A stretch of 38,308 nucleotides of DNA from Actinomycetes bacterium (GTDB lineage Bacteria > Actinomycetota > Actinomycetes > S36-B12 > GCA-2699445): NCBI GenBank assembly GCA_022600255.1, contig JAHZKU010000228.1, positions 1 through 38,308 of the forward strand, read 5' to 3'. The notes under the pieces are model-generated. The model was not told the DNA's origin. It saw only the letters and a program-made list of their open reading frames with translations, and ran no database searches. Below are positions 20,226 to 38,308 of the stretch, piece by piece (positions within the stretch are counted from its first letter, which is position 1; every line of letters starts with the position of its first letter). The translations under genes and the position numbers were made by a program.

Positions 20226-21839
20226 TCACTTCAGCCGGATCTTGACCGCGGTCTTGCTATCGCCCTGCTCGATCCAGGCACGGAGCCCCTTCTTGCTCTT
20301 GGGACTCCACTGGGAGTAGTCAACGACGAGGTCTGCTTCTTTTGGCAAAGCATTCTTGACGACTGCTTTCACACTGCGGCCCTTCTCTGGCTGCAACTCG
20401 GACTTGACGTGGACTTTCCCCGCACGACCTGAAGCGGTGGCGTACGTGACCTGCTCTTCGGCCTCGTCAATCTGCCCGAGGATCACACGCTCCCGCTGGC
20501 CCCGTGCTGCTCCCACTAGCTGCACATGGGTACCGTTCAGCTGTTCATCGGCGAATGTAATCTTGCCGATCCCAGGTTCCGGGCTGTCATAGACTACGAG
20601 ACCGGTACGTGGTTTGAGCCCAACTGCACCGACACCGTTCGCCGGTATCCTGACTTGGGTCACGCCCATCGTGAAGTCCCCCGACTGTGTCAACACGTCG
20701 GTCTGAAAGCCTTCAGGATTATGTTTGTTGTTGACACGCAGGACGAACGACTTCCCCTTCGGTATGGAGAAGCCCGGGAAGGTCCATTCCTCCCCGGCGC
20801 GCCATGGGTTGGTGGGCTTGCTGACCTTCACACCCTTCAGGCGCTTGCCGTTCGGTTTGCGGACCTTGACCTTCAGCGGGACATCGCTGACGACCGGATC
20901 GATCTGAACAGCTGTGCGGTTCGCCCCCGCACAGAACGGGCACTTCTGCTGCGCCGCCAGCTTCTTCACAGGTATCAGTCCGATCTGTTCGCTCCAGATC
21001 ATCTCCGGCTCGCCGGGCTTGGTCATCACCAAGTACTCCCACGTATTGGTGTTGGTATCGACATGAACAGCACGCGGCGTGCCCGGGTAGTTGTTGTCGT
21101 AGACAGCAATATCGAAGATGCCCTGGCCCCGGTCCAGTAGCGCGTACGGGGTGATCGCGTGCCCACCCTCGGCGCCGGTGATCACCAACACGAATGGGGC
21201 ACCACTTGATCCAAGCCCCGTTTGTAGCTGTTCGACGACCTTCCTCGGTGATGTCAGCGTGGAGGGGGTGGTGACCTGTTTTGCGAAGTTGACAGATATT
21301 GTCCGCGAGAGTTTGTTGGTGAGGCCGAGGTTGTATGTCTGGCCCACGCCTCGCTGAAAACTCTCAGCTTTGACGTAACCTTCCGCGATCATGGAGGCGG
21401 TGGTCGCCAACCCGAAACAGTGACCCCCGTCGGAGGCCTCGTTCATTGCATTCAGCCATTTCGCCGCCGTTATCGTCAGCCGACACTTCCCGGTCTTATT
21501 CCCCTCCCGACACACTTGCGGTCCGAGCATGTCACGCAGCGACTTGGCATTGGCATTCACTGGGTCCAGCGGGGCACCGAAGACGCTGTTGTTGGTATTG
21601 CTGGGAGATCCGCCGTAATTCGGGAAACCGAACCCACTGGCATAAGGTCGGAAGTCGGTTTCCACCACCACTTTGCCCTTCGGCTGCCATGCGGCAGGCG
21701 TGGGGGTATAGACCTCGTTCAACCATCTAGCGGCATCAGCACTCGTGGGCGGAGGTGGTTTCTGTTCCGCATTCGCGAGCGAAGGCACCGCAACCGTCAC
21801 CGCAAGCGCGCACCCAAAAGCCAAGAACGTCTTCTTCAT
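20226..21839 (-). CDS. Secreted Lys-rich protein of unknown function; possible papain-fold cysteine peptidase-like N-domain plus beta-rich C-terminal domains
   Basis: Sec signal MKKTFLAFGCALAVTVAVPSLANA/EQ. Ordered motifs GGHCFGLA (Cys141), EGGHAITPYA (His227), VYDNNYPG (Asp248). No family recognised with certainty. Confidence 0.75.
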   Translation of the reverse strand: MKKTFLAFGCALAVTVAVPSLANAEQKPPPPTSADAARWLNEVYTPTPAAWQPKGKVVVETDFRPYASGFGFPNYGGSPSNTNNSVFGAPLDPVNANAKSLRDMLGPQVCREGNKTGKCRLTITAAKWLNAMNEASDGGHCFGLATTASMIAEGYVKAESFQRGVGQTYNLGLTNKLSRTISVNFAKQVTTPSTLTSPRKVVEQLQTGLGSSGAPFVLVITGAEGGHAITPYALLDRGQGIFDIAVYDNNYPGTPRAVHVDTNTNTWEYLVMTKPGEPEMIWSEQIGLIPVKKLAAQQKCPFCAGANRTAVQIDPVVSDVPLKVKVRKPNGKRLKGVKVSKPTNPWRAGEEWTFPGFSIPKGKSFVLRVNNKHNPEGFQTDVLTQSGDFTMGVTQVRIPANGVGAVGLKPRTGLVVYDSPEPGIGKITFADEQLNGTHVQLVGAARGQRERVILGQIDEAEEQVTYATASGRAGKVHVKSELQPEKGRSVKAVVKNALPKEADLVVDYSQWSPKSKKGLRAWIEQGDSKTAVKIRLK

Positions 21840-22028: not shown

Positions 22029-24452
22029 ATGGCATTTGGTCGAAAGAAGAATCCGCAGCCGGAGGCTGTGGATCCATCGACCCCTCCTCCGGCTCCCCCA
22101 CCCGAAACGCCCAGGGCTGGCGACCCCGCCGCACCAATTCAGACCACGGCCAGCGTTGCCGTGGCAATTCTGCCGGGGGTGCCGCTGCCGGTTTGGGCTG
22201 GACGGATGGCGCTTACCGATCAGCTATTGAACGTGCAGAGCTACGTGGCTACGGGAGAATCACTTCCAGGCTCGCCGCGGCCGGCCGGAACCCCGCCGCA
22301 ATGGCAGCCAGAGGGTGGGGTCTCCCCAGACAGCCCACGCACGCAACTATCACCGCAATGGGTAGCAGAGCCCGAAAACCTAGAACTACGCCAGACACCG
22401 ACTTGGCGGGATGAGTCCGCCGATCTCGCGCTACCCCAAGCACCTGGCTGGCAGGACGAGTCAGCCAACCTAGAACCTGGCCACACCCCTACTTGGCAGG
22501 ACGAGTCTGCTGTGGCACCACCACAATGGGTCACTGATGTCGACACGGGCGAGGATTCGGATGACGCTGCGAGCCAGGATGCTGCACCTTCACAAGACCC
22601 CAAGCAGCCAGCCTCGGGGTGGGCCGCGGAGTCAGGGCCAGGGCCGCTGTGGATAGCTGAGCCCGCCAGCCGTTCGTCACCGCCGGCAGCCGACGCTGCA
22701 CCGACTGCATCGGCAGCAGGGACTACCCCAGCCACCGAGTCGGCGACCTCCGAAAGTGTTGCTCCGCAATGGCAGCCAGTCGCGACAGCCAATCCAGAAG
22801 CGGCACCGGGCCCGGTCTTGGGACCGGAATCCGAGGCGCCCCAGTGGCAATCAGATATCGCAGCCGCTGCTGTCGCCAACGATCCGACCCCAGTTGCAGA
22901 CGCAACCGCTCCGGCCCCGCAGCCGGAACCGGAGCCCGGGAGTGGCGAAAGGGCGCACCCTGCCGAGTCGGCGCCCGCCCCTGACCGCAGCTATCCCGTC
23001 GGCTCATTGCCGCCGCCGGCCAGTGCTCAGCGACTCAACCAGCCGCCAGCACCCAGCGCCGCGAGTCGCACTGATCAGCCGATCGGTCACATTGTCTACG
23101 GACCAGGAACCAGCCCACAAACCGTAGCTAGTGCCCTACAGCAAGCCACCGACCGACCCTATGTGGGCAACGATGCATACGTGCCAGATCTGGCACCGGC
23201 CGACAACAGCCCCGCTGCGGTGCCGGCGTCGCAGGCGCCCAACGATACCGATGAGCCCGATGAACCCGAAGGGACAGGTGGGACCGGTAGTGACGGGCCC
23301 GGCCCGAGCACGGGTGGCGGAGGTTCGCCACGCCAGCCCAACTCTCCAGTCCCCGGGACACCGACCGGTTCGCCAGAGCCACGTCAATCGAGGGGCAATG
23401 CTTTCCCAAGCCCACCCTCACGCACCGCACCACCCCCTCCTCCGGCCACGCCATCCCGGCCAGCGCCACCCGCACCGCCCAGTTCTCAGAGCGATGCCAG
23501 TGCCCAAGGTGAGGCACGACCCCTAAGCCCAACAGCAGTAGCCGTTGTCGCGGCCCGCGACAAGGCGTCAACGGGTGTGAGTTCCAGTCAGCCCGTGATT
23601 GACTTGCGCGGGCCAAAGCCAACGGTCAAGCCCGGCACTGGCGGAACGGCCGTACCTCTCTCGGGTGGTGCCTCTGGGGCAGTTGATGAGTCGAATCTGG
23701 ATCTGACCGATCGGGAGGCGCCACCCAACAGTCAGTCCGCTGAGGTCTCACTGCGCTCCGCAGGCCTACCCGATTCGACAGAATCACGCGTTGACACCAC
23801 CACGAAGGACCGTAGGGGCGCAGCGCAGGCGCCACCAACCTCTGGCCGGCTCCCATTGACCACGCCCTTACCAGCGACGACAACCGACCCGGGACCCGTC
23901 GCCAGCAACTCCCCTAGGGCAGGGCGCGACCCGCACCTGGGTCGCTGGCTGATCGGGGCCAGCGCCTTGGGCGGCTTGGCCGCAGCTGGCACGGTGCTGT
24001 TTGTGAACCCAGGGGTCTTGGTCGAATCGCCGACCCCCGCACCTGCGTCGCAGATCGCCCTACCGGGCAAAGTGGCCGGAATGAAGGGCGTCGCGTTGCC
24101 CGGCAACGCCATCGTCCCGGTCCTCGCCGCTGGCGGCGCCGAACCCTTGGTGGCCGCCTACTCCGGCGATGGTCAGGGTGCGACAGTGTGGCTAACGCCG
24201 CAACCGGGAACGGCCCCAGCGGAGTTGTTTGCGGCCTACCGATCGGCCGGTGGCAAAAAGACGGCGCAGCCACAGTCGTTTAGTCCCGGCGCACGTGGCG
24301 GCGAGATGCAGTGCGCCGCAGTGAACGCCAAGAAGTCGGTGTGTTTCTGGGGAACAGGCGGCATCACCGGTGGGGCGGAAGTGACAGGGCTAAACCGTAC
24401 TAGAGCAGCTCAACTGGTCGCCGAGATGCGGACGGATCTGGAACCTCGGTAA
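22029..24452 (+). CDS. Pro/Ala-rich, largely disordered single-pass membrane protein with a small Cys-containing C-terminal extracytoplasmic domain
   Basis: 807 aa. AGGGA SD before the ATG. One clear TM helix (WLIGASALGGLAAAGTVLFV, about nt 23943-24005) preceded by basic residues. The C-terminal ~145 aa are non-repetitive, with GGEMQCAAVNAKKSVCFWG. Confidence 0.7.
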   Translation: MAFGRKKNPQPEAVDPSTPPPAPPPETPRAGDPAAPIQTTASVAVAILPGVPLPVWAGRMALTDQLLNVQSYVATGESLPGSPRPAGTPPQWQPEGGVSPDSPRTQLSPQWVAEPENLELRQTPTWRDESADLALPQAPGWQDESANLEPGHTPTWQDESAVAPPQWVTDVDTGEDSDDAASQDAAPSQDPKQPASGWAAESGPGPLWIAEPASRSSPPAADAAPTASAAGTTPATESATSESVAPQWQPVATANPEAAPGPVLGPESEAPQWQSDIAAAAVANDPTPVADATAPAPQPEPEPGSGERAHPAESAPAPDRSYPVGSLPPPASAQRLNQPPAPSAASRTDQPIGHIVYGPGTSPQTVASALQQATDRPYVGNDAYVPDLAPADNSPAAVPASQAPNDTDEPDEPEGTGGTGSDGPGPSTGGGGSPRQPNSPVPGTPTGSPEPRQSRGNAFPSPPSRTAPPPPPATPSRPAPPAPPSSQSDASAQGEARPLSPTAVAVVAARDKASTGVSSSQPVIDLRGPKPTVKPGTGGTAVPLSGGASGAVDESNLDLTDREAPPNSQSAEVSLRSAGLPDSTESRVDTTTKDRRGAAQAPPTSGRLPLTTPLPATTTDPGPVASNSPRAGRDPHLGRWLIGASALGGLAAAGTVLFVNPGVLVESPTPAPASQIALPGKVAGMKGVALPGNAIVPVLAAGGAEPLVAAYSGDGQGATVWLTPQPGTAPAELFAAYRSAGGKKTAQPQSFSPGARGGEMQCAAVNAKKSVCFWGTGGITGGAEVTGLNRTRAAQLVAEMRTDLEPR
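22377..22511 (+). repeat. Three tandem 45-nt (15-aa) repeats NLELRQTPTWRDESA / DLALPQAPGWQDESA / NLEPGHTPTWQDESA
   Basis: Coordinates derived by counting codons from 22029. The repeat is visible at both DNA and protein level. Confidence 0.85.
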
Positions 24453-30999: not shown

Positions 31000-32514
31000 C
31001 TACTCGTTTACCGGCACCCAATCCAGGGTGCGCTCAACGGCCTGCTTCCAGCGCGCAAACAACCTATCGGCTTCGGCTGGATCCATCTGGGGCGTCCAGC
31101 GCTTGTCCTCGGCCCAGTTCGCGCGCATGTCGTCACCAGAGGCCCAGAAGCCGACAGCCAAGCCGGCCGCGTAGGCAGCACCGAGTGCAGTGGTTTCAAC
31201 CGTCTTAGGTCGGATCACCGGCACCCCGAGAATGTCGGATTGGAACTGCATTAACAGTTCATTCATCACCATTCCGCCATCGACCTTCAGTGTCGTCAGT
31301 TCCACGCCAGAGTCGGCCTGCATCGCCTCAATCACTTCGCGGGATTGGTAGGCGGCCGCTTCCAGCGCCGCCCGGGCGATATGACCCTTGTTGATAAATC
31401 GGGTTAGACCGACTAGCGCCCCGCGAGCGTCAGAACGCCAGTAAGGAGCAAACAGTCCCGAAAAGGCCGGAACAAAGTAGCAGTCGCCATTGTCATCCAC
31501 CGTTTCCGCCAGAGCTTCAATCTCGGGAGCCGCTTCGATAATGCCGATATTGTCTCGCAGCCACTGCACCAGACTTCCGGTCACCGCGATGGCACCCTCT
31601 AGCGCATAAACGGTGGGTTCGTCACCAATCTTGTAGCAGACCGTGGTGAGCAGACCGTTCTGACTCAAGACCGGCTCTTGCCCGGTGTTCAGCAGCAGGA
31701 AGTTGCCCGTGCCGTAAGTGTTCTTGGCTTCACCAGGAATCAGGCAGGCTTGCCCAAAGGTCGCGGCCTGCTGATCGCCCAGAATGCCAGCGATCGGCGT
31801 CCCGGCCAGCAACTTGGGATCTACCACCTCGCCGTAAACCTCAGAAGAACTGCGGATTTCCGGGAGCATCGACATCGGGATCCCCATGTCTGCGGCATTC
31901 TCCGGAATCCAACTGAGAGTGCGCAAATCCATTAGTAGGGTGCGCGAAGCGTTCGTGGGATCGGTGATGTGCAAGCCGCCGTTAACACCGCCGGTCATGT
32001 GCCAGATCAGGAACGTGTCGATCGTGCCCATCAGGAGGTTTCCCGCGTCCGCCTCCTCTCGAGCCCCGTCCACATTCTCCAGAATCCAGGCGACCTTGGG
32101 GCCCGCGAAGTAGGTGGCCAGCGGCAGGCCGGTCCGCTCGGTATATCGGGTGGCGCCACCGCCGAGTTTGCCGAGACGCTCAACGATGTCCTTGGTGCGG
32201 ACGTCTTGCCACACGATTGCGTTGTAGACCGATTTCCCGGTGTTCTTGTTCCAAACAATGGTGGTTTCCCGCTGTTGGGTGATCCCGATGGCCTGAACTT
32301 GCCGTCGGGCCGCGTCGGCTTCAACCAGGACCCCGCCCATCACCGAGGAGACGTTTTTCCAGATCTCTTCGGGATCATGTTCAACCCAGCCCGCCCGCGG
32401 GAAGATCTGTTTGTGTTCCATCTGATCAGTAGCGATGGGAGTCCCAGAGTGGTCGAATAGGATGGCGCGCGATGAGGTCGTGCCTTGATCGATGGCCATG
32501 ATGAAATCAGTCAT
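31000..32514 (-). CDS. glpK: Glycerol kinase
   Basis: MTDFIMAIDQGTTSSRAILFD.. and full-length FGGY-kinase similarity. ATG at 32514 with GGGAGAG SD. The upstream 44 codons in the track ORF are not GlpK-like. Confidence 0.96.
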   Translation of the reverse strand: MTDFIMAIDQGTTSSRAILFDHSGTPIATDQMEHKQIFPRAGWVEHDPEEIWKNVSSVMGGVLVEADAARRQVQAIGITQQRETTIVWNKNTGKSVYNAIVWQDVRTKDIVERLGKLGGGATRYTERTGLPLATYFAGPKVAWILENVDGAREEADAGNLLMGTIDTFLIWHMTGGVNGGLHITDPTNASRTLLMDLRTLSWIPENAADMGIPMSMLPEIRSSSEVYGEVVDPKLLAGTPIAGILGDQQAATFGQACLIPGEAKNTYGTGNFLLLNTGQEPVLSQNGLLTTVCYKIGDEPTVYALEGAIAVTGSLVQWLRDNIGIIEAAPEIEALAETVDDNGDCYFVPAFSGLFAPYWRSDARGALVGLTRFINKGHIARAALEAAAYQSREVIEAMQADSGVELTTLKVDGGMVMNELLMQFQSDILGVPVIRPKTVETTALGAAYAAGLAVGFWASGDDMRANWAEDKRWTPQMDPAEADRLFARWKQAVERTLDWVPVNE

Positions 32515-32660
32515 TACTCTCCCGAGCCGCCCCAGCGCGAGAAACACGGGCCGACAATTGCGTGTTAGTGGGGAGCGCCGTTGCCGACTGCACCCCAGTA
32601 CTGAACGCCAATAGTCTGCCGGGTGTGGCGCCGTTTCGCTCGGCAATCAGTGGTCTGCCG

Positions 32661-35567
32661 TCAACTCAACGGTGCTGTCACGGCGAGAACATCGCCGTGA
32701 CCAGACCCTCCACCCTCACTTGCGCGTTGTAGCTGACCAATCAGATCCAGAGTCGCGGCCTCCGGCTCGAGGGAAAACCGCTCAAGGTCCGCCAGCAAAG
32801 CGTGGGCCCGAGTCTGAGCGGCACTGTGATCAACGGCCGCCAGCGCCTTGAGTTGGTTGCGGTGCAGCGGCTCGCACCAGGGATCCACGCTCAACCCGAT
32901 ACCGGCGATTGCGGCGGCTTCAGTGAAATCGCATTGCTGCAGCAACCGAACGCTGAGCTCAAACGCGGCATCGGTGAGGTGGGGGGTCATCAGATGTTGT
33001 TGCCCGGCTGCCCACCCGAAGCGGCTAGAGGCCACCGCGAACGGGCGCCCTCGCACTAGTTGCATAGCGGCTCGTAGGTCTTGGTCCGTGGCTGCGTACG
33101 CGCCGCTAGGAAGCAACTCTTGAAAGGCATCCCAATCGGTGCGGATTGCGGAATTGATTCGACAGACGTCAGCGTGGTCGTACTCAAACCAGAAATCGCC
33201 ATTCGGCTGCGTTCCAAACCAACGGCGCGTACGACTCAACAACCCCGACCGCATGGCCCGCGACGTCCCGTCCGTGTTGCCTGGCCAGATGGCCGCCTCG
33301 AACTCCGCTGGTGTCGCCTGTGGATTGAGGGCCAGGAATGCGGCCAACTCTAGGCAGCGCTCACGTTTCTCCGGCTCAATCGGGCCGTCCACCCCACTAA
33401 CGGCCGGTTCGCCCAGAATGAGAATGTGCGGAACGGCTGTGCCGTCCCGCATGATGTCAGCTGGCCGCGGTGCGAGTTCGGGCTGAGTGCTCGGGCGCTC
33501 TTGTTCGGGTGTGTGGGCTGCGGCCGACAGGATGTCAGCCAAGGGAGGCTCGTCCGAGGCGAGGGTCGGTTGTGTCGCGGGTGAGTCGGCCGCTTGGGAC
33601 TCCTGAAATGCCCGCAAAATTTCACCGTAGTCGTCATCGGACACACGCTGCGGTTCCAGCCGGATCCCGAGCGGTTGCAGGGTAACGGAGTCAGGCTGCT
33701 GGGGGTCTTGCTCCAGATACCACTGCCCGATGCTGTCTTGAACGGTGATTGCTGAGACCCCCGTTCTGGGTGTTGTGGCGATCGCAGACCCAAGTTGATC
33801 GCGATCGGTTTCGCTCAGATGTTTGGGGGCCATGACCACTTCGGGGTTCCAGTACTCCCCGGTCGGCGAGGTTCTGACTTCAGCTAGTGACAACCCCTTG
33901 GCTCGCATCTGGCCAGAATCACGGCTCACGCGAGCTACTAGCTTTGCCAGGTAGGGCTGCGGTGCTTGTTGGAAGTTGACCCGACCGGTCCTGAGCGCTG
34001 GGTCCAAATCCGCCAACCAGTTCAGGGCCGTCACCTGCAGGTCGTCGGCCCACGCGCTGGTGACCAGATCCAGGGCCAGGGCATTCAGGACTTCCTGTAC
34101 GTAGCCAGGTTCCCCAAAGAGTCCAAGCGCAGCGACGTGATCTAGATCGACCAGGACGTGGCATTCTCGACCCGGAGACAGGTCATGTCCGAGGGTGACC
34201 AACGCCGGGTACGGAGAGGGCATTTCACGCCGCTGATCCGAGGCGGGTTCCTGTGGCTGTTCCAAGGACCACACTGTTCCGTCCGCGTTACCGCGCCACG
34301 GTGCGGGGAGTTGCTTTGGCTCTGCGAGATGAAGGTCGAATTGGTACTCGTAGAGCTTGGCGACTCTGATGCTGGGCAGCTTGCTGGACGCGTCGTGAAG
34401 GTCGAGGGCCAGTTGGCGTAGGGCGGAATCGACTCGTTGCACACTCATGGGATCTGCCAACGCCGTGATATCACGGACGATCTGCGGCTCCTCCGGTTCG
34501 CTGAGCGCAATCGGCGAGCCGGGGTGGCGCCGGCGCCGTTGTCTGAGTCGAATACTCGCCAGGCCGGTGGCCAAGCCGGCCGCGAGAATCGCTCCGATAC
34601 CAGCGGATGCGCGGACAGCCGGAGCATAGGACGTCTCCGACTCCGATCGCGCCAGTGGCGGCAGGGTTGCGGTGCCACCGACCTCTTCCCGAACCACTTC
34701 GCCAGAGGCTCCTCCCGCCGCTGGTCTTTTCTGGCGGGAGTTGTCGGCTCCCGATTTCGCGGCGGATGCGCGCTCAGTATTCTCGGCTGGTTGCCCAACG
34801 CTGGAACCGCCCGCAGTCTCGTCGGACGACTCCCTCGCCTCGGAACCACCAGCGGGTTCGTCGGTCGGCTTCTGTGCGCTGGGCGCGACTCGGTCACGGG
34901 TGGGGGGCGACTCTTGGTCGGTTGGGACTACGAGGGTCCAGCCAGGCTCGATATGGTCCGGATCGGTTAGGCGCCGACCATCTTCCTGCCGCACCGAGCG
35001 AGAAGCTTGATAGATCTCTGGATACCGATCACCGTCGTCCCACTCATCCTCAGCAATTCCCCACAACGTGTCTCCAGCGGCCACAACATACCTATCCGCT
35101 GCCGAATCCCCCGCCTTCCCCGGCGTTTCGTATCCCGATGGCGAAACCACTAGTGGTGCGAGGTGGCTAGCCGCCACCGGAGGCTCAGCCGTGGCCGTGG
35201 CGGCCGCTGATAGCGGCAATGCCAATAGGGCGATACCGGCCACCAGCCGGCGAGCCAGACCGCGCGGCCCGATCGCACTCAGGCCCTGCTGGACCGATCC
35301 GAGCGCGGCTGCTCTTGCCTCGGCCAGGAAACTCACGGCGAAGATGAGCCACCCCACCCAAGCCCCATAGGCCAAGGTGGTTAAGAGCAGCTGGCCGCTG
35401 TCCGGTTTGGTCAGGCCACCGACGATGGCCTCAAAAGGCGGTACCGACTCAGGAATCGGGGAACCTTGCAGCAGAACCAGGGCCGCCGGAATGCCGAACA
35501 GCAGCCCAACCGTCAGTAGCAGTGCCCCGAATCCGAATAGCACTTGACCCACACGGTTTTTCCTCAT
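32661..35567 (-). CDS. Polytopic membrane protein with an extracytoplasmic LysM domain and a C-terminal cytoplasmic wHTH + BTAD (SARP-like) module
   Basis: 968 aa from the ATG at 35567 (ATGA overlap with the upstream stop). TM helices at about residues 18-45, 73-92, 117-136 and 331-350 (track-ORF numbering), the last followed by RLRQRRRRH. LysM YVVAAGDTLWGIAEDEW..YPEIYQAS..IEPGWTLVVP (about nt 34923-35090). C-terminus (about nt 32664-33362) has LELAAFLALNPQATPAEFEAAIWPG..LLSRTRRWFG, then DWDAFQELL..LVRGRPFA..DPWCEPLHRNQLKALAA. Confidence 0.8.
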   Translation of the reverse strand: MRKNRVGQVLFGFGALLLTVGLLFGIPAALVLLQGSPIPESVPPFEAIVGGLTKPDSGQLLLTTLAYGAWVGWLIFAVSFLAEARAAALGSVQQGLSAIGPRGLARRLVAGIALLALPLSAAATATAEPPVAASHLAPLVVSPSGYETPGKAGDSAADRYVVAAGDTLWGIAEDEWDDGDRYPEIYQASRSVRQEDGRRLTDPDHIEPGWTLVVPTDQESPPTRDRVAPSAQKPTDEPAGGSEARESSDETAGGSSVGQPAENTERASAAKSGADNSRQKRPAAGGASGEVVREEVGGTATLPPLARSESETSYAPAVRASAGIGAILAAGLATGLASIRLRQRRRRHPGSPIALSEPEEPQIVRDITALADPMSVQRVDSALRQLALDLHDASSKLPSIRVAKLYEYQFDLHLAEPKQLPAPWRGNADGTVWSLEQPQEPASDQRREMPSPYPALVTLGHDLSPGRECHVLVDLDHVAALGLFGEPGYVQEVLNALALDLVTSAWADDLQVTALNWLADLDPALRTGRVNFQQAPQPYLAKLVARVSRDSGQMRAKGLSLAEVRTSPTGEYWNPEVVMAPKHLSETDRDQLGSAIATTPRTGVSAITVQDSIGQWYLEQDPQQPDSVTLQPLGIRLEPQRVSDDDYGEILRAFQESQAADSPATQPTLASDEPPLADILSAAAHTPEQERPSTQPELAPRPADIMRDGTAVPHILILGEPAVSGVDGPIEPEKRERCLELAAFLALNPQATPAEFEAAIWPGNTDGTSRAMRSGLLSRTRRWFGTQPNGDFWFEYDHADVCRINSAIRTDWDAFQELLPSGAYAATDQDLRAAMQLVRGRPFAVASSRFGWAAGQQHLMTPHLTDAAFELSVRLLQQCDFTEAAAIAGIGLSVDPWCEPLHRNQLKALAAVDHSAAQTRAHALLADLERFSLEPEAATLDLIGQLQRASEGGGSGHGDVLAVTAPLS

Positions 35568-36373
35568 TCTCGCCGGCCCTTGGTCACTGGTGCCTGGCAC
35601 AGGTTCCGCTCCGAAGTGGCCGCAACCGCCTCTGCGCAGTCACGGACACTCAACGCATATGGGGATCGGGCTAGCTCCGGTGGCGGTGCCGTACCCAGAC
35701 TGTAGATTTCGGCTCGTACCGGATCCAGTTGGATGCTCTGGTAGTCGCAGATCTGCAACAATTCAGCGATCTCGCGGATCGAATGGGGTTGATTCGGCCC
35801 GACAACACACAGGAATCCCGGTGGTGGCTGGATCCGATGCTGAGCGGCTGATTGCTGACGGGTTTGCGACAGAAGGTCCCAAGCAGACGTGGCGGCTGCG
35901 ACACCGGAGAGGGTGGAGCGACTCACCACCACCAGGACATCTGCGGCCTGGGTAAAAACTGCGACATCCTGGGGCCAGTTGACGCGCCCGACATCCACAA
36001 ACACGTCTGCAGACGCAGCGTCAGCGTAGGCCAAGCATGCGGCCAACAGCTCGGTTTGGAACTGCGGCAACTGCTCACGATTCACCCCAATGGCTTCGCC
36101 GGCAAGCACCGAAGCAACACTACTGCCGATCGGCGCCAACGCCCCGGGCAACTCGGCTGCGAGGTTGTCGCCCTTACGCCAAGTCTGCGCCAATGACGCG
36201 AGTCCGGCAGCCGGGTCCAACGTTCCTCGGAACAGCCCGGCCGCGATCGCGCTCGCGGTATTCGTGTCGGCCTCGACAATGATCGCCGGCTTGTGCCAAA
36301 CCGATGCCATCGCTAGCACCGACGTGGTTGTTCCCGGCGCACCGCTACCGGACCCGAAAACGATCAAACTCAT
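35564..36373 (-). CDS. ParA/MinD/TadZ-like P-loop NTPase-fold protein with a degenerate Walker A (no lysine)
   Basis: ATG at 36373 with GAGGGAG SD. MSLIVFGSGSGAPGTTTSVLAMA occupies the position of KGGxGK(T/S)T. IIVEAD and DVFVDVG occupy the A'/Walker B positions. Confidence 0.7.
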   Translation of the reverse strand: MSLIVFGSGSGAPGTTTSVLAMASVWHKPAIIVEADTNTASAIAAGLFRGTLDPAAGLASLAQTWRKGDNLAAELPGALAPIGSSVASVLAGEAIGVNREQLPQFQTELLAACLAYADAASADVFVDVGRVNWPQDVAVFTQAADVLVVVSRSTLSGVAAATSAWDLLSQTRQQSAAQHRIQPPPGFLCVVGPNQPHSIREIAELLQICDYQSIQLDPVRAEIYSLGTAPPPELARSPYALSVRDCAEAVAATSERNLCQAPVTKGRRE

Positions 36374-36430
36374 GCGGCTCCCTCGATTGACAGGCAATCC
36401 GAATGAGGAAACCGTAGAACGGCAGCCCAG

Positions 36431-36478
36431 TGCCAGCTAGGGGTGGAAGTACCCCAAAGCGCGTCGTTGGAGCTGGCA
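36431..36478 (-). promoter_or_regulatory. Nested inverted repeats TGCCAGCT...AGCTGGCA (outer, 8 bp) and GGGGT-GGAAGT-ACCCC (inner), in the only non-overlapping junction of the operon
   Basis: Read directly. Begins 10 nt downstream of the TadG-like stop codon (36489-36491). Confidence 0.4.
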
Positions 36479-36488
36479 GCGGCCAAAC

Positions 36489-36920
36489 TCACGGGGCACC
36501 GACCCGGTGCACTAGCGTGGCTTCGGCATACCCAGACACCTCCATGGAGTGGATACCCAAAAGCCCCAGAAACACCGGCTTGACGGTATCTCGCGTTGTG
36601 ACCCTAACGAGTTGACCGGACTGGCTAACACTGACATCGCCGTCGAACCCGGTTAGGCGAAGGTAGTCTCTTGCCTTGTTCCGGGCTAGTCCTGGGTCCA
36701 GCCGGACTCGTCCCTGCGCCATCGCCTCTGCCGCGATGATCTGCTGGCCTCCCGCTCGGGCGGCTTCTGCAGCAACCGCATCGGCCATCTGCGTGCCACG
36801 AATCTTCGCACCACCGTCAACTACCAGGCCGATAGCCCCTAGCAACACCACGCTGAGCACAATCATGAGCAGACTCAGCGACCCGGCTTCCTCGTCCTCA
36901 ATACAGGTGGGGGCGCTCAT
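36489..36920 (-). CDS. TadG-like / Tad N-terminal-domain pseudopilin-like protein
   Basis: 143 aa. EDEEAGSLSLLMIVLSVVLLGAIGLVVDGGAKIR matches the Flp-pilus-assembly TadG N-terminal pattern (acidic/Gly, hydrophobic helix, VDxG). ATGA overlap with the upstream gene. Confidence 0.65.
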   Translation of the reverse strand: MSAPTCIEDEEAGSLSLLMIVLSVVLLGAIGLVVDGGAKIRGTQMADAVAAEAARAGGQQIIAAEAMAQGRVRLDPGLARNKARDYLRLTGFDGDVSVSQSGQLVRVTTRDTVKPVFLGLLGIHSMEVSGYAEATLVHRVGAP

Positions 36921-37405
36921 GATTCCCGGCCCCGGTAGGTATCCAACGGTGACGTTGCTTCAGCCTCCAGCAATCGTGATCCCGGCAGTCCCGGAATGGC
37001 CAGGTCGGCCAACGGCACCCGACACTGCACAGCTGCACCCACTCTCGCGGGCCTGCCAACCGGCTTTGCGAACCCACTGGTGTCGAGGCGAACCCCGACA
37101 TCAGCACACTGCAGCCCCTGCTCGTGAATGATTCGAGTGGCCGTGGCTGTTGCCTGTGACTGGGCTGCACTTGCTGAGCGCGCCAGCGATGCTGTCCGGG
37201 CCGCTTCGAACGCAGCCGCCTCGACAGCCTGACCTGCGATGGCAATCCGACCACCCGCGATCGCGGTCGAGACAAGCAACAGGAATGCCGCAGCCACGAT
37301 AGTCAGTTCCAAGGTGCTGGAACCGGTATCGGGTGCGCGACCCAAGACTCGTCGTCCGGCTTGGCCTGTCCCAGGAATGCAATCGATAGAACCTGCTCTA
37401 GTCAT
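36917..37405 (-). CDS. TadE-like pseudopilin
   Basis: 162 aa. ..APDTGSSTLELTIVAAAFLLLVSTAIAGG matches the TadE motif (G-S-x-x-x-E + hydrophobic helix). ATGA overlap with the upstream gene. Confidence 0.7.
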   Translation of the reverse strand: MTRAGSIDCIPGTGQAGRRVLGRAPDTGSSTLELTIVAAAFLLLVSTAIAGGRIAIAGQAVEAAAFEAARTASLARSASAAQSQATATATRIIHEQGLQCADVGVRLDTSGFAKPVGRPARVGAAVQCRVPLADLAIPGLPGSRLLEAEATSPLDTYRGRES

Positions 37406-38308
37406 CGGCGCACCAACAACTGCAGTTCGCCGATCCGCACTTGAGTCGTCGACTCGAGTTCAAACCGGAACTGGCCAGACTGACCGTTGCCGATTCCGGT
37501 CTCCGCCCAATCCACGACCCAGTACGATCGCGCACTCACGGAGTAGGCCTGACCTAGTCTGCGGTCGGAGGCCTCGTAGTACACATGACCACAACTCGGC
37601 GAGGGCTGCGCCCCGTCACGCTTTCGATACCGCTGCCCCGGTCCGGTGCAGGTGACGCTCGTGCCGTCTCCCATGTCCCAGACCGTTTTGGCCACGTAGG
37701 CCCGGGCCGTGACCGACACTGGCCCAGCCGTCGCCGTCACCGTCTTCGGCTCCGATCGGCTGGCCCACTGGTTATCAGCCGGGGCATCCACCCATAGCCA
37801 GGTCGGCAAAGCAACAAGGCCGGTTGATCCCGCTGGGGGCGTGATGCCAATCCGAAAGGGCTGGAGTTGCATGGAATCGGTCGCAGATTCAGCCAGCTCG
37901 ATCGGAGGCGGTCCGGCAGCGGGTGGTTGCGCCGCCCAGAAGGGCGGCAGGTGACGTAGCGGCACCATCGGAGACAGGCAATCGAAGATCTGACCCGTCC
38001 GGTTGCCCTGCCAAACTGGATCCGACTTAGGTGGCTGCGGATCGCGTAGCGACACGTAGCATTGCCGCGAAGGACTCCACGAACTCCCGGGTCGGAAGCA
38101 CGGAACATCGGCGCCCTGGAATGCGCAACGCTGTTCACCACCAGGACGACCCCCAGCAGGCGCAGCGTCCTGACTCGGCGGCGCCCAGTCGGCGATCACG
38201 GTAACGCTTCCGTGGGCGGCATTTGAGGGGGCGTTCGGATTCTTGAGGTCGCCAAGGGCTGGCCATGCCACACCCGACACCACGAGCACAATGCCGATTG
38301 CCGAAACC
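37402..38308 (-). CDS. N-terminally anchored Pro-rich protein with a PKD-like C-terminal beta domain; 5' end beyond the window
   Basis: The frame stays open to the window edge (..VSAIGIVLVVSGVAWPALG is a hydrophobic anchor), and the track start at 38289 is only a GTG inside that helix. C-terminal LPTWLWVD..KTVWDMGDGTSVTCTGPG..CGHVYY..YSVSARSYWVVDW resembles the PKD WDFGDG...HxY pattern. Confidence 0.6.
   Translation of the reverse strand, partial: VSAIGIVLVVSGVAWPALGDLKNPNAPSNAAHGSVTVIADWAPPSQDAAPAGGRPGGEQRCAFQGADVPCFRPGSSWSPSRQCYVSLRDPQPPKSDPVWQGNRTGQIFDCLSPMVPLRHLPPFWAAQPPAAGPPPIELAESATDSMQLQPFRIGITPPAGSTGLVALPTWLWVDAPADNQWASRSEPKTVTATAGPVSVTARAYVAKTVWDMGDGTSVTCTGPGQRYRKRDGAQPSPSCGHVYYEASDRRLGQAYSVSARSYWVVDWAETGIGNGQSGQFRFELESTTQVRIGELQLLVRR

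Follow-up and report, generated by a model that had tools for sequence, protein, structure and literature searches.

Introduction

Among described systems, the tad loci of Cutibacterium acnes plasmids stand closest to the subject of this study, a run of five minus-strand genes (open reading frames (ORFs) A to E) at one end of a 38,308-nt contig (JAHZKU010000228.1, GenBank assembly GCA_022600255.1) from an Actinomycetes bacterium (GTDB lineage Actinomycetes; S36-B12; GCA-2699445). This stretch, hereafter the window, is an entire contig of an NCBI metagenome-assembled genome, and the contig end falls inside ORF A. The C. acnes plasmid locus PAGK_2360–2370 was described as encoding RcpC (SAF), a "TadZ/A" protein with no Pfam match, TadA, two TadB/C proteins, an unknown ORF, three TadE proteins and PAGK_2369, which carries the Pfam domains "LysM, BTAD" and was labeled 'TadB' (Kasimatis 2013, PMC3666418). 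A later study of these plasmids, on which conjugation functions are also encoded, showed pili-like appendages on cells by electron microscopy, and identified TadE2 and a 30.7-kDa signal-peptide protein, APS60_12625, by mass spectrometry in sheared-surface and secreted fractions (Davidsson 2017, PMC5696575). The D- and E-family proteins were studied in neither report, reviews of monoderm type IV pili do not mention the two families, and we found no functional work in the literature on D, E (the LysM/BTAD protein) or A, in agreement with a preliminary description of this DNA that knew of no characterized role for D and E. The same reviews leave open what holds or positions a minimal Tad machine, and how its fiber passes or grips a thick cell wall.

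Canonical TadZ combines the Walker motif K/RGGxGxS/T with an N-terminal receiver-like domain that is used for localization; CpaE depends on PodJ, and in Bdellovibrio a TadZA fusion, whose TadZ part has no receiver domain, uses that part to bind the hub protein RomR. Here we describe the five-gene locus as the distal end of an actinobacterial Tad/Flp (type IVc) cluster and consider it moderately probable that its largest product, E, is a wall-anchored organizer with the TadZ-like protein D as its partner.

Gene content and layout

The features of the locus are as follows.

37402..>38308, minus strand: ORF A, frame open to base 38307, N-terminus cut by the contig end
36917–37405, minus strand: ORF B, TadE-like minor (pseudo)pilin, 162 aa
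36489–36920, minus strand: ORF C, Tad/TadG-like minor pilin, 143 aa
36374–36488: spacer between C and D, 115 nt
35564–36373, minus strand: ORF D, receiver-less TadZ-like protein, 269 aa, the length of the NCBI gene call
32661–35567, minus strand: ORF E, 968-aa membrane protein

The ATGA start/stop overlaps of A and B (37405–37402), B and C (36920–36917), and D and E (35567–35564) were read directly from the sequence, which confirms the close packing, the three overlaps and the 115-nt gap that had been reported before. The NCBI annotation places the start of E at a GTG five codons later (963 aa), giving an 11-nt spacer to D rather than an overlap; the N-termini of homologs fit the ATG better than this GTG. 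A GAGGGAG ribosome-binding site precedes the ATG of D in the C–D spacer. Direct repeats were not found in this spacer; it has a perfect inverted repeat of 8 nt (36431–36438 / 36471–36478, TGCCAGCT / AGCTGGCA) with its arms 32 nt apart, and neither a sigma-70-like promoter nor a terminator was detected across 32300–38308, the spacer included. High-GC operons often show ATGA overlaps, and it is the repeated co-occurrence of the five families, rather than the overlaps, that goes beyond chance. The single, tightly coupled operon that the preliminary description proposed is supported.

Relatives of the locus

Relatives of E were collected from one genome per species using a 9-sequence alignment as the query, which yielded at least 505, and the families were mapped by tblastn on 80 fetched loci (cited by handles such as L004). 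Survey counts refer to the 59 of these loci in which 9 kb or more of sequence precedes E; the contexts of six E homologs and two D homologs were inspected. The recurring cluster has the order (ParA) – x – SAF – D-like – T2SSE (TadA) – T2SSF – T2SSF – small pilin – TadE – TadE – Tad – E-like – x – A-like. TadA, TadB and TadC all lie within 10 kb of E in 56/59 loci, upstream and on the same strand as E in 51 and divergent in 5, while D is present in 56/59 and SAF (RcpC/CpaB-like) in 54/59. From this recurrent co-occurrence it follows that the A–E families are regular components of a single type of Tad locus. The neighborhood survey thus upholds the Tad linkage of D and E that had been proposed, whereas the notion of a separate, uncharacterized envelope module has to be given up, as A–E are standard accessory genes of a widespread locus type whose LysM/BTAD ORF was already listed in 2013. 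Flp-type pilins of 60–70 aa are encoded between TadC and TadE in most loci; they gave no match to the canonical Flp expression G/XXXXEY and carry a looser [DE]RG/S..E site. Genes of the A24 family (TadV-type prepilin peptidase) flank several related loci.

Only two things set the window apart from this locus type: its genes are ordered A-B-C-D-E, and it breaks off before any motor gene. The D family stands directly before TadA in 54/55 loci and directly before E in 0/59, and among about 90 loci examined the D–E adjacency with a start/stop overlap occurs in this organism only. In canonical loci the stop of D overlaps the start of tadA (for example L004 5193–5196); here it overlaps the start of E. 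Other departures from the common order are a split arrangement in L030, with B-C-E-A about 8 kb from SAF-D, and an interrupted operon in L094. The only other sequences with D are short contig pieces (2.6–3.8 kb) of the same organism, which stop in the same genes, and identical sequence is present in 3 additional metagenome assemblies. No tblastn match to TadA, TadB, TadC or SAF was obtained within the 38-kb window, and flp was likewise not seen there; the motor genes and flp are probably absent because the contig ends inside A, and tadA, tadB, tadC and flp would be expected past that point or in another part of the genome. The window fragment is a known type of actinobacterial Tad locus in rearranged, truncated form.

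The tad locus of the C. acnes plasmids pIMPLE-HL096PA1, p15.1.R1 and p09-9 is made up of the same gene families: SAF, a 272-aa D-like protein, CpaF/TadA, two T2SS-F genes, a small pilin, TadE-type genes, a TadG-related gene, a 1037-aa LysM protein of the E family and a 293-aa A homolog, in agreement between the RefSeq annotation and the 2013 gene list. Overall identity to the window proteins is only about 26–30% (26% for the D-like protein, E-value 8e-13). In C. acnes the locus is complete and resides on plasmids; in the window it is a chromosomal fragment that the contig end truncates. The gene next after D is tadA in C. acnes and E in the window, and A comes after E in C. acnes but before B in the window.

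B and C are minor pilins of the TadE/TadG type. B matches Pfam TadE (PF07811) at 24.9 bits (cut-off 22.9) and has a prepilin-like N-terminus (…DTG/SSTLELTIVAAAFLLL), and its tblastn matches adjoin Tad genes in nearly all related loci. C matches Pfam Tad (PF13400) at 26.3 bits (cut-off 22.3) and, weakly, Tad_C, and its C. acnes counterpart is annotated 'TadG-related'. With both proteins above the Pfam cut-offs, their earlier assignment as TadE/TadG-type pseudopilins stands.

A is an exported or anchored ~30-kDa protein of the cluster. Its first visible residues, VSAIGIVLVVSGVAW, are hydrophobic, and its conserved C-terminal domain carries a W-D-M-G-D-G / SPSCGHVY motif. A is homologous to a 280–293-aa protein encoded two genes after E in related loci (37% identity to the L004 counterpart, E-value 2e-27), its C-terminal domain matches C. 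acnes PAGK_RS11985 (E-value 1e-10), and the family occurs in 43/59 related loci. From locus-tag order, position and size, APS60_12625 is probably a member of this family. Searches of A against Pfam (E ≤ 1), NCBIfam and PDB sequences returned no match. A PKD domain, the label first given to A, was rejected because no model matched; its sole support was the WDMGDG motif and one homolog named 'PKD domain-containing protein' by the NCBI annotation pipeline (PGAP), which names most homologs 'ATP/GTP-binding' or 'hypothetical'. 'ATP/GTP-binding protein' is the PGAP name of most Streptomyces A homologs (plasmid matches H27, H28 and H31–H53); the family is exported, no nucleotide-binding motif was seen in it, and the name is probably an inherited misnomer.

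Domain structure of the E protein

The five segments of E, read from the sequence and from an AlphaFold2 model, are listed below; SARP denotes the Streptomyces antibiotic regulatory protein type of regulator and TPR the tetratricopeptide repeat.

35205–35567, minus strand: residues 1–121, MRKNR N-terminus and predicted transmembrane helices 5–34, 58–88 and 101–116
34923–35096, minus strand: residues 158–215, LysM, predicted external
34530–34916, minus strand: residues 218–346, disordered acidic Pro-rich linker, fourth transmembrane helix (TM4, 326–346), then RLRQRRRRH
33588–34460, minus strand: residues 370–660, predicted EccC-DUF/FtsK-like P-loop fold without Walker A/B
32718–33440, minus strand: residues 710–950, predicted SARP module of an OmpR-type winged helix and a BTAD/TPR-like domain

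E has 107 word-sharing homologs, and all named ones belong to Actinomycetota. The model, built on a 24-sequence alignment, has a predicted local distance difference test score (pLDDT) of 74.9, with the folded domains above 90, a low-scoring third helix (101–116) and values below 50 for residues 218–322; in it, a disordered linker separates the central domain from the SARP module. By the positive-inside rule, the N-terminus would lie inside and the LysM domain outside, and the C-terminal 620 aa would be cytoplasmic because an Arg cluster follows TM4.

Residues 158–215 are assigned to LysM on the strength of model matches and a predicted beta-alpha-alpha-beta fold (strand 158–161, helices 168–176 and 179–189, strand 211–214; pLDDT about 94–96). 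The window protein scores 20.3 bits against Pfam LysM, just below the 20.9 cut-off, and matches NCBIfam PRK11198 at an E-value of 9e-8; 15/24 family members pass Pfam LysM at E ≤ 0.01. The LysM matches of the family profile range from 1e-11 to 1e-7 and include Kbp (2e-11), TsaP of the Myxococcus type IVa pilus machine (7e-9) and LytE.

The central domain has no counterpart in existing annotation: no Pfam or NCBIfam model covers it and no paper that we found records the EccC-DUF/FtsK-like fold predicted for it. Foldseek searches of the PDB with the modeled domain returned the FtsK motor (2e-7), TcpA (4e-6), EccCb1-D2 (4e-5), the EccC5 DUF (1e-3), EccC D3 and EssC, all with a probability of 1.0. 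The superposition on EccCb1-D2 gave a TMt of 0.55 and a root-mean-square deviation of 4.7 Å over 267 columns, and that on the EccC5 DUF a TMt of 0.55. At sequence level, none of the 24 members matched Pfam FtsK_SpoIIIE, and the best hit of a domain-only profile against PDB sequences was the EccC5 DUF at an E-value of 0.84, with nothing significant; for lack of a significant sequence match, the FtsK/EccC likeness is claimed at the level of the fold. The P-loop position reads LGLFGEPGYVQEVL and the Walker B position WNPEVVMAPKH, and GK[ST] or DE is found at these positions in none of the 24 members. The domain is therefore predicted to be a conserved pseudo-ATPase, and without Walker A/B we count E as a pseudo-ATPase fold only, not among the FtsK/SpoIIIE/EccC ATPases.

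The C-terminus of E is, by its modeled fold, a SARP module consisting of a winged helix-turn-helix (wHTH) and a BTAD domain. Foldseek matched it to the AfsR SARP (8k60_J, TMt 0.60; also 8hvr_I) and to EmbR (2ff4, TMt 0.46), and the family profile gave TPR matches and weak matches to the ToxR and CarR winged helices. Pfam BTAD scores 12.4 bits in the window protein and is matched in 7/24 members; Trans_reg_C is matched neither in window E nor in the 24 members scanned. The recognition helix (769–784, …SRTRRWFG) has R773, S778, R781 and W783 invariant in 9 members. A shorter annotated relative, P0045, consists of one N-terminal hydrophobic segment, the central domain and the SARP module. Together, these results bear out the LysM/four-helix/wHTH-BTAD architecture of the preliminary description at the level of the family and the structure; for the single protein the Pfam calls are weaker. 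Across the locus, the Pfam scan that it had suggested is likewise divided: TadE and Tad pass, LysM falls just short, BTAD is weak, and Trans_reg_C and ParA-type families are not matched. The pseudo-ATPase domain of E, the missing receiver domain of D and the association with plasmids and conjugative elements, described below, had been overlooked.

ORF D and the TadZ family

D is, as modeled, a receiver-less TadZ-like protein with a MinD/ParA fold. Its AlphaFold2 model (pLDDT 88) matches MinD, FlhG, FleN, Soj and ParA in Foldseek (1e-9 to 1e-7, TM-scores about 0.65–0.75), and a 21-member family profile matches Thermus Soj at an E-value of 6e-6, setting the family motif x-G-[AS]-P-G-[VTA]-[TS]-T on K-G-G-V-G-K-T-T of Soj. 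The family alignment was built from neighbor genes of E homologs, as a word-based homolog search with D alone returned D itself only. An N-terminal receiver domain is absent from the 269-aa protein, in which the first beta-strand of the ATPase fold begins at residue 3. The P-loop, GSGSGAPGTTT, has a lysine at neither Walker-A position, and together with the fold match this corroborates the earlier description of D as a ParA/TadZ-like protein without the P-loop lysine. That absence is a trait of the whole D family and the norm for TadZ, not something lost in this protein alone: no member has the GK[ST] lysine, and the signature position, Ser in window D, is K/R in 19/60 distinct members. Aspartates D36, D123 and D127, of the Walker A' and Walker B motifs, do not vary in the family.

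D is 28–30% identical (E-value ~1e-25) to the protein encoded directly upstream of tadA in L004 and L006. Against TIGR03815 (Ssd/CpaE_hom_Actino) it scores 20.9 bits, compared with a cut-off of 154, over profile positions 117–273 of 340 only, in the C-terminal ParA part of the model; 6/21 family members touch this model below its cut-off, and no Pfam model, ParA-type included, matches the family. The family numbers over 869 members, of which almost all bear the name 'hypothetical', and the nearest relatives of D and of E in a set of 5.8 billion proteins are only about 35% identical. Window D is more diverged than its neighbors (0.31 bits per residue versus 0.43–0.59 for B, C and E), which fits altered constraint after relocation.

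D thus shares with TadZ/CpaE the ParA/MinD fold, a Walker-A-like motif without the GK[ST] lysine and, in related loci though not in the window, a gene placed directly upstream of tadA and overlapping it. It differs in having no receiver-like domain and, for window D, no K/R of the K/RGGxGxS/T motif.

D-family proteins of Kitasatospora and Streptacidiphilus (P0180–P0227) are 400–480 aa long, versus about 270 aa, and contain an additional region. Many loci open with a further ParA-like gene whose Walker A (KGG..GKS/T) is intact and whose sequence is not related to that of D (L004 2098–3042, L006 1733–2689, L008 1927–2856, L091 2160–3086), and these loci therefore hold one canonical and one lysine-less ParA-fold protein. 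Upstream of several head ParA genes (L008, L010, L034 and L053) there are locus-specific tandem repeats, which may be partition sites.

Mobile elements, promoter repeats and flanking genes

The E family was found on 214 and the A family on 231 actinobacterial plasmids, with carriers that include Streptomyces, Rhodococcus, Curtobacterium, Micrococcus, Microbacterium and Cutibacterium. TcpC, TcpE and VirB4-like genes of a Tcp-type type IV secretion system (T4SS), or genes for large peptidoglycan hydrolases, adjoin the locus in L093, L016, L024, L029, L045 and L095. Together, these data suggest that this Tad locus type often travels on conjugative elements of the T4SS type. On chromosomes and contigs, conjugation genes were also noted beside the locus in L093 (1–6361), L095 (15658–20586), L010, L048, L050 and L052, and comprise TcpC, TcpE, VirB4-like AAA_10 and a multi-domain SLT/M23/NlpC-P60 wall hydrolase. 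An IS605-type OrfB/TnpB gene (Cas12f-like) lies a few kb downstream of E in L004 (16142–17608), L006 (15277–16824) and L008 (16062–17399), three loci that otherwise differ.

A direct repeat, TAGCCC-N6-TAGCCC, is located about 175–290 nt upstream of E in 7/7 loci with a divergent E gene, at the following positions.

L009 9809–9826: TAGCCC repeat
L015 9710–9727: TAGCCC repeat
L031 5183–5200: TAGCCC repeat
L035 9780–9797: TAGCCC repeat
L039 9726–9743: TAGCCC repeat
L044 9729–9746: TAGCCC repeat
L069 9732–9749: TAGCCC repeat

The repeat is absent from co-directional loci, and 8 exact copies were counted in 1.73 Mb versus 0.33 in shuffled sequence; a third copy, CAGCCC, often lies upstream of it. 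We regard it as a possible operator for a protein of the winged-helix/SARP type. No shared repeat was found in the TadC–flp spacers, which are only 50–60 nt long in several loci. Repeats upstream of the head ParA genes were rejected as SARP sites, as each locus has its own and they might just as well be sites for partition. A tandem array of the TAGCCC hexamer at the edge of a Streptomyces locus (L060 311–334) is unrelated in position to the promoter repeat.

Downstream of E, the window encodes an FGGY kinase (glpK-like), tRNA-Gly, tRNA-Pro, trigger factor (tig) and two ClpP proteins (clpP1P2), followed further along by clpX, a class-I tRNA synthetase gene and a Mur-ligase-family gene; no mobile-element gene is in view around the fragment. 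Between the class-I tRNA synthetase gene and clpX lie two large ORFs, at 22029–24452 (plus strand, 807 aa) and 20226–21839 (minus strand, 537 aa), neither of which has a Pfam match at E ≤ 1e-5; the former lies in the most GC-rich part of the window (0.668).

Discussion

The most likely function of E is, in our view, that of a wall-anchored organizer and/or a membrane-tethered regulator with D as partner, and the two roles are compatible. In the mechanism that we propose for the organizer, the LysM domain would fix E to peptidoglycan outside the membrane, and the cytoplasmic pseudo-ATPase/TPR-like part would dock the receiver-less D and, through D, the TadA–TadBC motor. E would in this way supply the localization and anchoring role that is played elsewhere by PodJ, RomR, FimV-type proteins and the TadZ receiver domain, while its SARP winged helix would feed back on transcription of the locus. 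We favor E as organizer because it is the sole conserved protein of the locus that is predicted to span the membrane and to be able to bind the wall, and because, by analogy, LysM/TPR proteins such as FimV, HubP and TsaP organize other type IV machines. Since D has no receiver domain, a separate localization partner would be needed, as RomR is in Bdellovibrio, and E is suggested for this part because the stop of D, which canonically overlaps the start of tadA, here overlaps that of E. The intact SARP winged helix in turn suggests that E may regulate the locus as well.

Several points weigh against E as an organizer partnered by D. The FtsK/EccC-like assignment derives from a predicted structure only; the docking of D to E and of E to TadA is purely conjectural; and the conserved recognition helix speaks for a regulator no less than for a scaffold. 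Its divergence would also allow D to be a paralog with a changed role. Finally, tadA, tadB, tadC, SAF and flp were not found in the 38-kb window, and as the contig stops inside A, a complete machine in this organism is only presumed.

Comparison with known proteins places E between several classes. FimV/HubP-, PodJ- and GspA/ExeA-type proteins use a TPR-like or NTPase-like module inside the cell to position machines or ParA-like ATPases. E may be likened to these proteins, and to the LysM protein TsaP, as a functional analog, a membrane protein that would grip peptidoglycan outside, but homology to them stops at LysM, and the four transmembrane helices, the pseudo-FtsK domain and the full SARP module are found in E alone. 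Residues 370–660 resemble the EccC 'DUF' in predicted fold, in their place directly after the last transmembrane helix and in a degenerate nucleotide site. Unlike EccC, FtsK, SpoIIIE and TcpA, however, E has a single such domain rather than three or four in tandem, lacks Walker A/B, and is encoded in a pilus locus rather than in a type VII secretion or DNA-pump context. Like AfsR, E unites TPR-like repeats, a P-loop domain and a SARP module in about 1000 aa; the wHTH+BTAD fold and a conserved recognition-helix signature link it to both AfsR and EmbR. In contrast to AfsR, the SARP module of E is C-terminal instead of N-terminal, and its P-loop domain is FtsK-like and inactive, not NB-ARC. ToxR/TcpP and CadC are membrane-tethered winged-helix activators, and E would likewise be tethered and bear an external domain. 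To our knowledge, no characterized SARP has membrane anchorage or a LysM domain.

It is possible, though on balance doubtful, that E is mainly a membrane-tethered SARP activator, akin to ToxR/TcpP or to a large AfsR-type SARP bound to the membrane, in which LysM would sense the state of the wall or muropeptides, the pseudo-ATPase would act as an oligomerization switch and the wHTH+BTAD module would activate tad/flp, with D a co-regulator or simply a neighbor. As far as we know, all characterized SARP modules are DNA-binding activators, and the C-terminal 250 aa of E superpose on the AfsR SARP and EmbR and keep invariant the S-x-x-R-R-W-x-G recognition-helix signature of OmpR/SARP proteins. The weak ToxR/CarR profile matches point in the same direction, as do the minimal build of P0045 and the regulator-like placement of E in seven loci, where it is divergent from the tad operon and all the shared promoter regions contain TAGCCC-N6-TAGCCC. 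Yet this repeat has no specific tie to E, the co-directional loci share no repeat motif, several of their TadC–flp spacers being 50–60 nt, and Pfam Trans_reg_C is matched by 0/24 members. Four transmembrane helices, a LysM domain and a 290-aa pseudo-ATPase body are also elaborate for a pathway-specific activator, and we know of no membrane-anchored SARP that has been characterized.

A reading that we consider unlikely is that the locus type, and with it this fragment, serves conjugative elements, with a mating or DNA-transfer pilus rather than one for host adhesion, and that E, being FtsK/EccC-like, wHTH-bearing and wall-binding, is a relic or adaptor of DNA or protein translocation. The plasmid counts of E and A, the T4SS or peptidoglycan hydrolase genes that adjoin six loci and the conjugation functions of C. 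acnes plasmids are all in its favor, and Tad pili have been reported to mediate DNA uptake in M. luteus. The order of transmembrane region, linker, FtsK-like domain and winged helix also echoes FtsK and TraB. However, with the Walker motifs lost in all members the FtsK-like domain is no motor, and the winged helix is of the SARP/OmpR rather than the FtsK-gamma type. In the window, moreover, the neighbors of the fragment are chromosomal housekeeping genes (glpK, tRNAs, tig, clpP1P2X) and no gene of a mobile element is visible, and many chromosomal loci have no T4SS gene within 10 kb.

The preliminary description saw in D and E a distinct envelope module, with D a second, probably ATPase-dead TadZ beside, by implication, a normal one upstream. 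That the D–E adjacency is unique to this organism, that window D is unusually diverged, that many related loci have an intact ParA-like gene at the head and that the region upstream of A is out of view beyond the contig end would all accord with this proposal. It is nevertheless very unlikely: the TadZ-like proteins of these loci form one family, of which D is a member, D and E families each occur in almost every related Tad locus, two D-family genes were found in no related locus mapped by tblastn, the missing P-loop lysine is family-wide and TadZ-typical, and a LysM/BTAD ORF was on the 2013 list for a tad locus. Equally improbable is a motor-less satellite or decaying Tad remnant with no pilus of its own, for although motor, platform, SAF and Flp genes were not found in the 38 kb and split (L030) and interrupted (L094) arrangements exist, the five ORFs are intact and translationally coupled and keep family-invariant residues, the fragment recurs in three further metagenome assemblies, and the expected place of the missing genes is exactly where the contig stops.

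We therefore return to E as a wall-anchored organizer with D as its partner. D, E and A are conserved in the locus type, and E and A are carried by more than 200 plasmids, including those of C. acnes that have been linked to isolates from acne and the prostate, and large plasmids of Rhodococcus and Streptomyces. The window adds only one rearranged, truncated example to this set, and the value for follow-up lies in the unstudied E family. With a predicted wall anchor, a dead translocase-like domain and an activator module in one chain, E is a candidate for the missing organizer/regulator. As a tentative extension, which we regard as rather unlikely, E could represent a novel kind of hub for the pilus machines of single-membrane bacteria, one that spans the membrane, is anchored to peptidoglycan, recruits a receiver-less TadZ and signals to tad promoters. 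If so, an external LysM domain would be joined to two cytoplasmic parts, a SARP module and an inactive EccC/FtsK-like ring, and the D–E start/stop overlap would be the genomic trace of a physical partnership. Such a hub would replace, for Tad pili, the Gram-negative system of polar landmark and receiver domain, and, in reporting the state of assembly or of the wall to tad promoters, E would be the first membrane-tethered SARP.

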